From assembly GCA_039621445.1 (NCBI GenBank), contig CP154954.1:46045847-46109846 (forward strand): a stretch of 64,000 nucleotides of DNA, in the 5' to 3' direction. The translations under genes were made by a program, and so were the position numbers. Positions 45,301 to 48,300 of the stretch are shown here, piece by piece. How positions within the stretch are numbered: the first letter of the stretch is position 1; each line of letters starts with the position of its first letter. The DNA comes from Euglena gracilis. Taxonomy: Eukaryota. Under the pieces are notes generated by a model, which had not been told where the DNA came from, did no database searches, and worked only from the letters and a program-made list of their open reading frames with translations.

Positions 45301-48300
45301 TGGAGAAAACTCTGTGAGCCACACCTTGAATTTTTTGGTATTTTTAAGGCATCTTTAGGCATTTTGTTTTGGCGACAAGGGTATTTTTGGTTTTTTTTAA
45401 AAGGTGCTTTTAGCAAACTGCGGAATTTTTCGACCCCAAAATTGACTCACTAGAAGTGGGTCCCTTGAACCCCTTGAGGCCTGAGGGGGTGGTGGGGAGA
45501 CCTCTTTGGACCTGAAAAAATCCCTTCCTACCCATCCCCAATAACAAAATCCTTTTGTCCGTCAAACCACAGGTTGGATTTTTTAAGCTTGTGACCTGGG
45601 CAGGGTTTAAGTTAGTGGGGGGGGAGGAGGATTCAGATTAGGGCTCAATATAGGGAGGTTGTATGGGTTTAGGTGGGGGGTCGCTGAGCTCTTATCCCTT
45701 TATGGGTAAGAGCGAAGCTTACCCCTGGGGGAAACCCCCCCCTCGGGGCCACCGGCGGATTATCACCATGATTCGGCTCCGTTCCCGAAATTTTTTTTTC
45801 AGCCGCGAGCGACTGGATTTCTAGTTTCCGAATCACCTATGCAAAAAATTGAGTTTTTTTTTGCATATTGACCCCCATAAAGCGGGTCCAGGTGGTTTTT
45901 TAGGGCAATTTTGGTGTGAGTTCAGAACATTTTTTTGAGGCGGGTCTGAGGTGATTTTTCCATTTCCTGTCGATGTGCCGAAACGCAAGGCACTGGGATT
46001 TTGCTTTTAGAAAGTGGTTTTCATGAAGGAAAAAAAAACGGGGATCAGTGCTTTCAGAAGAAAACATCAATGTACCAGGTTTTACTGTAACATAGTGACA
46101 TCCTGGTGCATGGGTCTGAGCATTTTGCCCCCTCTCCATTTTGGCACCCTGCATTTTACCATTTTGGAGGTTGCAGCTTTTTGTTCGCAAGGATGCCATG
46201 CATCTTTTTTTGCCTCAGGGCGCTGTGGCCATGTTTGCTGAAACTGGTGAGAAGGCAGCAAAACGTATGTGCAGCAGTTCCCCCCGTAATTGAATCTGGT
46301 TGGAGCTAGTTTCGCATCAAAAAACGTTTGTGGAATTTGGATTGTCTCTTTTTCTTTTTCTCATGCTTTCGTTTAACCTTCTCCAACCATGCATTATGCA
46401 TTATTTTGGACTGGACCGCTGGACCCCCCCCCCTCCCCGGGGGTGCGCCACGGGTCAGATTTTTGCCTGGGCATGGGTTTCGGTGCAAAGGACCGAATTT
46501 TTTTTTGGGAAATGCCCTGGGACGGCCCGATTTTTGGGGCTTCCCTGCCCCCCCCCCCCGCCCCTGGGCGGGGAGTCCCATGTTGGGCTGGGTGGGTGGG
46601 GGGGACCCAGGGTTGCATGGGAAGAAGCTCCGCAGACATGAGGCAGGTGGTGGGGGGTCCGGCCGGGATTTTTTGAAGGGTTTTTGACCGATTTTGGCTG
46701 GATTTTGGATGGGTGGGTGATTGTCGGCTAATGGGTGGGTGGCTTTTGGTTTTCAGAAAAAAGTGCCCCCCCCCCCCCCCGGCGTCATTAACTGAATCTA
46801 TGAGCCTGAGTTACAGGCCGGGTGAGGCCTCTATTATACATAATGCATGTAATATTTTTTGGTCCCTAAAATTGACCCTCAAAAGTGGGTCCTCCGATGC
46901 CTGGGGGGGGGGGAGGCAGTCCAGATCTTAAAAATCCTCTGGCTGCCCTTTCGCTTAAGTGGCACTCTGGATGCTTTTCTTTTTGATGTTGCTGCTTTTC
47001 TCTCTCCCCTGCACAGCTGCGTGGACCGTGCCCGATTTGGCTGATGCTTTGAAGAACACTTCAGCTGTTGCCAAGGTTTCATTTTCTCAGTGTGAAGCAC
47101 GCACAAAATATGGGCATCGATCAGGCTTGTGCTTCAGCATTCACTGGCCCCCCTTCCCTTCCCCCGGCGGGGAAGGCCACAAGGGACGAGATGCTTTTTT
47201 TCGTCAAGGACCGCCCTTTCCCTCAGGGATGGCTTATGGCCGGTCTGGGGATGAAGCAGGGTCAAAAATTAAAATCTCAAAACACATTTTTTTCACGCTC
47301 TGGGGGGAGATGGGCAATGGTGTAAGAATGCCAGAAATCACCCCCTTCTTCCCCTCGAAATCGACCTGTTTTTGCCAAAATATGGCAAAGTTTTGTGCGT
47401 TTATGTTAAGCACCAATTTTTTTTGGATTCCAATATTGACCCCCCCCCCAACAGTGGGCCCCCCCCTGCCCCCCCCCCCCAGGGGGTAGGTGGGCCAGCT
47501 TGCCCAAATTTGGTTTATAAAAATCCCATCTCCCCCCCCACACGTACACGTGTGTAACACAGGTTGAGTTTCACGACAATGTCAATCAACCAAGCGTTGG
47601 ATTTTGTGTTCTTTTTGAAAATCCTGCCTCAAAATTTTCAAAATCACCCCCTTTCCAGTCATCTTGCCAACGAAACCTGCCAATTTTTTCCGGGCCGTTT
47701 CAGGTTTGGCACCAATTTTTTCGGCTTCCAATTTTGTCGGTTCTAATTTTATCCAGCTTCAATTCCCCCCCCTCGGTAACCCCCCCCCCCCCACTTATAA
47801 ACCCCCGCGGTTAGTAGGATCTGGTTTGGTTGGTCGGCCGAAGGGGGGGTTTATAAGTCCCGGAATTGTTGGTGAAAATCCGAACCCCCAAAATGACCCC
47901 GAAACCCTCCCAAATTGGCAATTTTTTTTTCAAATTTGGTCAAAAATGGCATTTTTTGATGATGGTTGATCTCAAAAAATTGCCAAAAAATCAGTTTTTG
48001 GGTGGTTTGCGGCCGAAAAAATCGTCCCCGGCGGTTTTCATTTTTCTTCCTCGAAGGGGGGGGGGGGTTATAAGTCCCGGTTTAGTTGGTGGGCCCGAGG
48101 GGGGGGTTAGTAAGTGGGGGGGTTAATGCATATTCCAAAATTGGCCACATTGGGCCAGTAATGATTGACCACAATGATTGACCATCATGGCCAACACAGA
48201 CAAAATTGATCCAATGGCCCAAAGTTTTTGACAAATTTAGTCGAAAAATGGCCAACAGCTTGACCCAGGCACCTGCACCATCTTTCAGAAAATGTTTTTT

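Follow-up and report, generated by a model that had tools for sequence, protein, structure and literature searches.

A mini-exon-encoded linker in the multi-unit psaD gene of Euglena gracilis: a probable polyprotein processing site of possible presequence origin

How does Euglena gracilis obtain single PsaD subunits of photosystem I (PSI) from a gene whose reading frame passes from one PsaD unit into the next without a stop codon? The question is raised by a 64,000-nt stretch of nuclear DNA from E. gracilis (contig CP154954.1, 46,045,847-46,109,846; called the window here, all coordinates being positions within it), in which psaD occupies the plus strand from 33131 to at least 56045 in many small exons. 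Between the units lies a short peptide encoded by a mini-exon of its own, first at 46219-46264 and again at 52799-52844, and this peptide is very probably a processed linker of the euglenid polyprotein type, cut by a presumed protease at presumed sites. Since the linker exons share their phases and their position with the last exon of the presequence, a second question is where they came from. Taken together, the linker mini-exon, the layout of the gene, the route from precursor to subunit and the origin of the linker form an account that we consider reasonably likely.

The reading frame was reconstructed by exon calls from between-unit homology, three-frame reading and splice signals. Eighteen exons were modelled, three of a presequence, exons A to D (with a small exon A2) of unit 1, a linker exon, exons A to D of unit 2, a second linker exon and exons A, A2 and B of unit 3, and a GT donor and an AG acceptor are present at all of the introns that separate them (17/17). 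The frame is uninterrupted from the presequence through unit 1, linker, unit 2 and linker to exons A to B of unit 3, that is, over two or more mature units, and its repeat period of 603 nt or 201 codons (linker 46, A 59, A2 45, B 154, C 188 and D 111 nt) is the repeat period of PDB 9vfj_D. The exon translations match PsaD chains of the PDB, with E = 1.7e-12 for exon B against cyanobacterial PsaD, and the spliced translation is identical at 596 of 601 aligned residues to a 698-residue three-unit E. gracilis protein of UniParc (P0001, which is PDB 9vfj_D) that itself matches PsaD chains with E = 6.8e-56 and carries a precomputed Pfam PF02531 (PsaD) assignment.

Are the mini-exons indeed spliced between the units? 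Contigs of four runs from four studies were aligned to 44700-64000; the runs are labelled 'RNA?', yet their contigs contain spliced joints, which indicate presence and not amounts. The joints of unit 1 exon D to linker exon 1 (44940 to 46219), of linker exon 1 to unit 2 exon A (46264 to 47017), of unit 2 exon D to linker exon 2 (52563 to 52799) and of linker exon 2 to unit 3 exon A (52844 to 52997) each occur in all four runs, as do the joints 2A-2A2, 3A-3A2 and 3A2-3B, so that 4/4 runs contain seven of the ten joints that lead from exon 1D to 3B; 2A2-2B and 2B-2C are found in 3/4 and 2C-2D in 2/4 runs. Exon 3B is spliced in the contigs to an exon C outside the window with first bases unlike those of unit 2, and a search of the window for this start of exon 3C matched only unit 2 exon C, with 2 mismatches. 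Some joints among those listed are odd, namely 50385 to 51455 ('CC..CC'), 50389 to 51466 ('TA..CA'), 61800 to 51607, 51643 to 44828 and, with 7 letters between, 56046 to 51466; they are read as transcripts of unit 1 or unit 3 exons outside the aligned stretch that were placed on their nearest look-alikes. A further 139 joints exist beyond those listed.

The two linker exons encode the same peptide. Linker exon 1, 46 nt long with 15 residues plus 1 nt and bounded by cag upstream and gtatgt downstream, reads GGC GCT GTG GCC ATG TTT GCT GAA ACT GGT GAG AAG GCA GCA AAA C, and linker exon 2 differs from it at four third codon positions (GCT/GCC, GAA/GAG, ACT/ACC, GGT/GGC). Of 10.7 synonymous sites 4 are thus changed and of 34.3 nonsynonymous sites 0, an outcome that random placement of the changes would give with a probability of (10.7/45)^4, about 0.003. 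The core of the peptide, a decapeptide, is identical in both linkers and in a 217-residue metagenome protein (P0003). The latter shares with the three-unit protein 38 of 38 residues from EPASVKF... to ...AWTVP and differs from it at 9 of the next 43 residues. Judged by the absence of nonsynonymous changes and by this local conservation, the linker peptide is under purifying selection. A linker-region string of 17 residues is also present twice in 9vfj_D. In the protein search of the linker region for a wider euglenid comparison P0003 alone was confirmed, one of 19 candidates, and a metagenome scan for the linker pattern gave 355 pattern matches with 0 confirmed by tblastn.

Linkers of the LHC and RbcS polyproteins of Euglena follow the consensus xMxAxxGxKx, which the PsaD decapeptide fits; for the LHC linkers the comparison covered this consensus. 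Work of Koziol and Durnford from 2008, the title of which reportedly names concerted evolution, is said to describe 44 conserved decapeptide linkers, said to contain the cleavage site, in the LHCI and LHCII (LhcE/LhcbM) polyproteins of Euglena. The psaD gene has the same architecture as these, and the patchy similarity of its units 2 and 3 (proportion of differing synonymous sites, pS, 0.09-0.46) resembles the concerted evolution of the LHC genes, whereas the LHCs belong to the membrane proteins and their precursors can comprise up to five units or more. For RbcS the comparison can be made residue by residue. According to the accessible parts of PMC4938576 (statements on all papers cited by PMC number refer to such parts), the RbcS precursor of E. 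gracilis consists of eight units joined by GMAAMTGEKD (Chan et al. 1990, as described there), which differs from the E. longa linker NMAAMTGEKD only by the Gly at position 1. With the RbcS linker of E. gracilis the PsaD decapeptide shares 6 of its 10 residues (M2, A4, T6, G7, E8 and K9), which bears out the proposal of the preliminary description of this locus, made from the DNA letters alone, that the linker is of the euglenid polyprotein type. Like the RbcS polyprotein, the units of which are released in the plastid, the PsaD precursor combines a single class I presequence with mature units in tandem and a linker roughly ten residues long; unlike RbcS, it carries a core subunit from the stromal face of photosystem I, is documented with three units (in the 698-residue sequence) and has units that differ among themselves (proportion of differing nonsynonymous sites, pN, 0.13 between units 1 and 2). 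The two-unit plastid precursors of cpPGK and EF-Ts (PMC7729029, PMC6242988) likewise have a presequence followed by repeated monomers with a short linker between them, but PsaD is absent from the lists of fusion precursors in the accessible text of these two papers.

Is the precursor cut, and if so where? The preliminary description had named mature termini far from the linker, or uncut tandem PsaD in PSI, as the observations that would speak against it; what is found instead are modelled ends that bracket the decapeptide and single units in PSI. The PsaD built into a 2.06 A map of PSI starts with W...TVP and ends with ...KDVQTEGAV (residues 81-267 in the authors' numbering; PMC13076659, supplement file 1), and its C-terminal V is the residue directly preceding the decapeptide. 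The chain 9uas_D, from another strain, extends from (x)SKPAW to ...QTEGAVA, and 9v7t_D, with 186 residues and a sequence deduced from the density according to the accessible text of its paper, covers the same span as the other modelled PsaD. Besides the precursor four Euglena PsaD chains have been deposited, all of them single units of 186-203 residues, and at least one PSI-bound PsaD is an internal unit with the QTEGAV tail kept. With the cryo-EM models as proxy for the termini, the support for cutting at the linker is good but indirect. Several points weigh against taking these ends at face value. Deposited or modelled ends can reflect disorder or the choice of the depositor and do not fix the scissile bonds; at the C-terminus 9uas_D extends one residue further (A) than the model of PMC13076659 (V), and their N-termini lie several residues apart; and the literature examined yielded neither direct sequencing of the N- or C-terminus of PsaD nor pulse-chase or in vitro processing experiments.

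One deposited chain implies a different way to single units. The chain 9vjs_D equals residues 304-506 of the three-unit protein except for F411 to Y, begins at the linker methionine (MFAETGEK...) and ends with ...GAVAMF, which suggests that its depositors read the linker Met as a start; the Met of AMFAE would then be the start codon of separately translated units. However, exon D is not followed by a stop, the frame runs on through both linkers, and the RNA contigs join exon D to the linker and the linker to exon A. Moreover, a unit started in this way would have no presequence and could not, by established knowledge of Euglena import, reach the plastid, and PSI-bound PsaD is modelled from W or SKPAW and not from M. 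Translation starts at the linker are thus very improbable, and cleavage of a polyprotein at the linker is the reading followed here.

How did the linker exon come to lie between the units? Presequence exon 3 (33574-33613, plus strand) is a third mini-exon of the same build. All three start in phase 0 and end in phase 1, and each is followed by a homologous 59-nt exon (33662-33720, 47017-47075 and 52997-53055) whose first 2 nt complete the split codon. The preliminary description had seen correctly that the linkers encode one peptide with synonymous changes only and that linkers and presequence exon 3 have in common their phases, their place before a 59-nt exon and an AM(F/L)AE motif; its coordinates were all right but for a single base, as the 59-nt exon that follows presequence exon 3 has its first position at 33662 and not at 33661. 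A degenerate pattern for AM(L/F)AE, GCNATGYTNGCNGA, has three matches in the 64 kb, confined to the three mini-exons, against a mean of 0.05 in shuffles, in which three matches were reached in 0 of 100; since the pattern was derived from the same three exons, this count is no independent test. AMLAEAAE of exon 3 aligns with AMFAETGE of the linker, with 5/10 identities over the decapeptide, and both kinds of exon end with ...AAA plus 1 nt directly before the same split codon. The score of this match is reached by 4 of 3393 13-residue windows in the plus-strand frames of the window, the three exons included. Exon 3 agrees with the linker at A1 and E5, which are not found in the RbcS linker, and misses T6, G7 and K9, which the PsaD and RbcS linkers have in common; this pattern favours ancestry, as a common protease rule alone would predict the reverse. 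A duplication could have produced the arrangement as follows. A block from the intron before exon 3 to a point past exon D would have been duplicated in tandem, whereby a copy of the spacer between presequence and mature protein would have been put between two units, and the linker exon would be the diverged copy of this spacer. Descent of the linker exon from presequence exon 3, as judged by sequence comparison, seems to us slightly the better bet.

Several observations weigh against this descent. A shuffle of residues that preserves composition reaches the observed score in 823 of 20000 trials, and a codon shuffle at the DNA level, run 5000 times against each linker, does so 108 times with linker 1 and 2819 times with linker 2. 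At the consensus positions G7 and K9 exon 3 has A and V, and it is 6 nt shorter than the linker. No similarity between the flanking introns of exon 3 and those of the linker exons was seen in the between-unit homology comparison; introns align only between the two linker exons, over 3 nt upstream and 8 nt downstream. Units 1 and 2 are nearly saturated at synonymous sites (pS 0.67), so that few traces of an ancient duplication can have persisted. Derivation from exon 3 is plausible, with phases, place and the five identities in its favour and the sequence statistics and the missing G7 and K9 against it. It could be imagined instead that the linker exon arose independently of exon 3, either by exonisation of 3' untranslated or intron sequence after exon D or as a cassette from another polyprotein gene, with a breakpoint in the intron between exon 3 and exon A and a likeness due to chance or to a constraint by the plastid peptidase. 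The linker is nearer to the RbcS linker of an unrelated gene (6/10) than to exon 3 (5/10), showing that likeness without shared gene ancestry does occur in this system, and the shuffle results, the want of intron homology and the deviating positions of exon 3 just mentioned also fit an independent origin. Yet such an origin would need a chance match for the phase-0 start (1 in 3), and it would leave to coincidence the matches at A1 and E5, not shared by the RbcS linker, and the common ...AAA plus 1 nt before the same split codon. We consider it rather doubtful, though by no means negligible.

Beside the descent from exon 3, a short likeness was noticed by eye between the 3' ends of presequence exon 2 (33514-33522, ...TCAGAAGAG before gt) and exon D (44932-44940, ...GCAGACTGAG before gt), too short to be weighed; should it be genuine, the block that was duplicated might start inside exon 2. 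One protease may cut both the presequence site and the linkers, which the preliminary description had also proposed and to which we give somewhat less than even credence. On a bolder reading, euglenid polyprotein genes in general could have arisen by tandem duplication of a block that opens with the mini-exon of the presequence cleavage site. The linker would be a fossil presequence tail and a portable phase 0-to-1 'cut-here' cassette, a single stromal peptidase would strip the presequence and separate the units, and the N-terminal extension of PsaD encoded by exons A and A2, which is carried by every unit and which cyanobacterial PsaD does not have, would be recruited presequence-proximal material. 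In this full form the proposal is speculative and, in our estimate, unlikely.

Which route could lead from the gene to PSI? By analogy with the established RbcS and LHC polyproteins of Euglena, one mRNA would be translated into one PsaD precursor with at least 3 units behind one presequence, which would be inserted into the endoplasmic reticulum, travel via the Golgi to the plastid and be imported. In the plastid the presequence would be removed, whereupon a soluble stromal protease would cut the units in or beside the decapeptide and release PsaD of about 190 residues. For the soluble stromal (thiol) protease that processes polyproteins only an activity has been described (Enomoto et al. 1997, cited in PMC4938576), and to our knowledge no gene is known. 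Each released unit would retain an N-terminal extension that is specific to Euglena and for which exons A and A2 and the first part of B code. Cryo-EM papers on Euglena PSI describe, in their accessible parts, additional N-terminal helices of PsaD, or an 'insertion L90-S130', that bind or anchor antenna proteins, and by our own count on the supplement sequence of PMC13076659 both L90 and S130 fall inside this extension.

The exons themselves, all on the plus strand, are laid out as follows. Presequence exon 1 (33131-33364) opens with the start ATG, encodes a signal-peptide-like hydrophobic stretch at residues 9-27 and a transit-peptide-like region and ends at a GT donor; its residues 17-78 correspond to residues 1-62 of 9vfj_D, which is without the first 16 residues of the open reading frame of the window. 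Presequence exon 2 (33409-33522) encodes a second hydrophobic (stop-transfer) domain at residues 90-108, ends with ...RKPRSEE and matches residues 62-101 of 9vfj_D. Presequence exon 3 has 40 nt for 13 residues plus 1 nt and would serve as spacer between the stop-transfer domain and unit 1 besides being the proposed ancestor of the linker exon. The two hydrophobic windows, placed by hydropathy calculation alone, are 62 residues apart, and this spacing fits the '60 +/- 8 rule' for the hydrophobic domains of class I presequences (PMC6242988). The precursor is accordingly predicted to have a single N-terminal class I plastid presequence in which a transit-like stretch of about 62 residues separates the signal peptide from a stop-transfer helix. 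In unit 1 the 59-nt exon A encodes (A) plus 19 residues and is followed by A2 (38403-38447; 45 nt, 15 residues), B (38497-38650; 154 nt), C (41637-41824; 188 nt) and D (44830-44940; 111 nt), which ends with ...TPKDVQTE without a stop codon. Beyond linker exon 1 and exon A (59 nt), unit 2 consists of A2 (48989-49033; 45 nt), B (50235-50388; 154 nt), C (51458-51645; 188 nt) and D (52453-52563; 111 nt), again ending with ...TPKDVQTE; beyond linker exon 2 and exon A (59 nt), unit 3 has A2 (54897-54941; 45 nt, with an acceptor tag) and B (55892-56045; 154 nt), its exons C and D lying outside the window. The five residues that differ between the window and 9vfj_D among the 601 aligned (S/R, S/P, E/Q, A/S and N/S) presumably represent allelic or strain variation. 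At codon GCA 33580-33582 the window reads TYAMLAE and 9vfj_D TYSMLAE, a difference at the first residue of the motif. Intron sizes are bimodal, with four introns of 44-51 nt around the presequence exons and between exons A2 and B of unit 1 (for example 33523-33573, 33614-33661 and 38448-38496) and 13 introns of 152-4682 nt that are rich in repeats and contain runs of G/C homopolymers.

How many units does the gene have, and how are they related? Units 1 and 2 are distant (pS 0.67, pN 0.13), and units 2 and 3 are close, with pS 0.20 over exons A, A2 and B and 0.09 to 0.46 for individual exons; to judge by these sequences, the variation from exon to exon suggests patchy gene conversion. Exon D of unit 2 differs from that of unit 1 by 1 residue at the protein level, and exon D of the last unit, taken from 9vfj_D, differs at 8 of 35 comparable positions and ends with ...TPKDL. 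Unequal crossing-over, by which unit 2 would have received exons A-C of unit 3 type and an exon D that is unit 1-like at the protein level, was set aside because the pS of 0.56 between 1D and 2D against 0.09 between 2B and 3B misfits in timing unless gene conversion followed. Two observations leave the number of units unsettled and in this respect weigh against the simple three-unit picture. The PsaD of PMC13076659 combines A-C exons of unit 3 type with a D exon of unit 2 type and the start of the linker, a combination absent from the three-unit protein, so that there are either more than three units or chimeric transcript assemblies. In addition, an extra copy of parts of unit 1 follows exon 3B: 56437-63886 (plus strand) repeats 33864-40548, from the first long intron of unit 1 through exons A2 and B into the intron behind them. 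Identity amounts to 82.5-97.4% in the long aligned blocks and to 98-99% in two short blocks at the ends, and the A2-intron-B stretch 61550-61797 is identical to 38403-38650 at 248/248 positions. Either a segmental duplication of recent date, nested within the intron that separates 3B from 3C, or a join made in assembly would account for this copy. The copy, whose exons are identical to the originals, is suspicious and could be taken to mean that the repeats as such are an assembly artefact and that psaD has a single unit. Between units 1 and 2, however, 13% of the nonsynonymous and 67% of the synonymous sites differ, transcript contigs of four runs cross both linkers and an independent 698-residue sequence derived from transcripts has three units. 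An artefact of this kind is therefore exceedingly improbable, and psaD is treated here as a true multi-unit gene.

In the neighbourhood of psaD, a 770-codon open frame on the minus strand (29183-31495), about 1.6 kb upstream of the psaD start, contains a reverse-transcriptase domain (Pfam RVT_1, E = 1.2e-11) and probably represents what is left of a retrotransposon. For eight further long open frames, which lie between 12 kb and 29 kb of the window, no Pfam match was obtained.

How much of this is new? The polyprotein kind and the decapeptide linkers were known before, so psaD is a new example of a known Euglena habit, and its three-unit sequence is already public as 9vfj_D. In the accessible parts of the literature on Euglena, PsaD and polyproteins, to which the supplements of structure papers may add, no passage calling PsaD a polyprotein was found; the string MFAETGEK gave no match in the literature, and PsaD is not named in the supplements of PMC13230849. 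The published Euglena PsaD sequences are inconsistent with one another: 9vjs_D starts at the linker Met, 9vfj_D is a three-unit precursor truncated at its 5' end and the sequence of PMC13076659, as far as accessible, mixes exons of different units. For the structural reports the exon map offers an explanation, as their 'insertion L90-S130' is the extension at the N-terminus that exons A and A2 and the beginning of B specify. The modelled termini provide a first estimate of the place where the linker is cut, which makes the identity and specificity of the protease easier to test. With PsaD, the making of a photosystem core subunit as a euglenid polyprotein would be shown for the first time, and the exon map, in which the linker has a mini-exon of its own with the phases and position of the last presequence exon, bears on how polyprotein genes arise.

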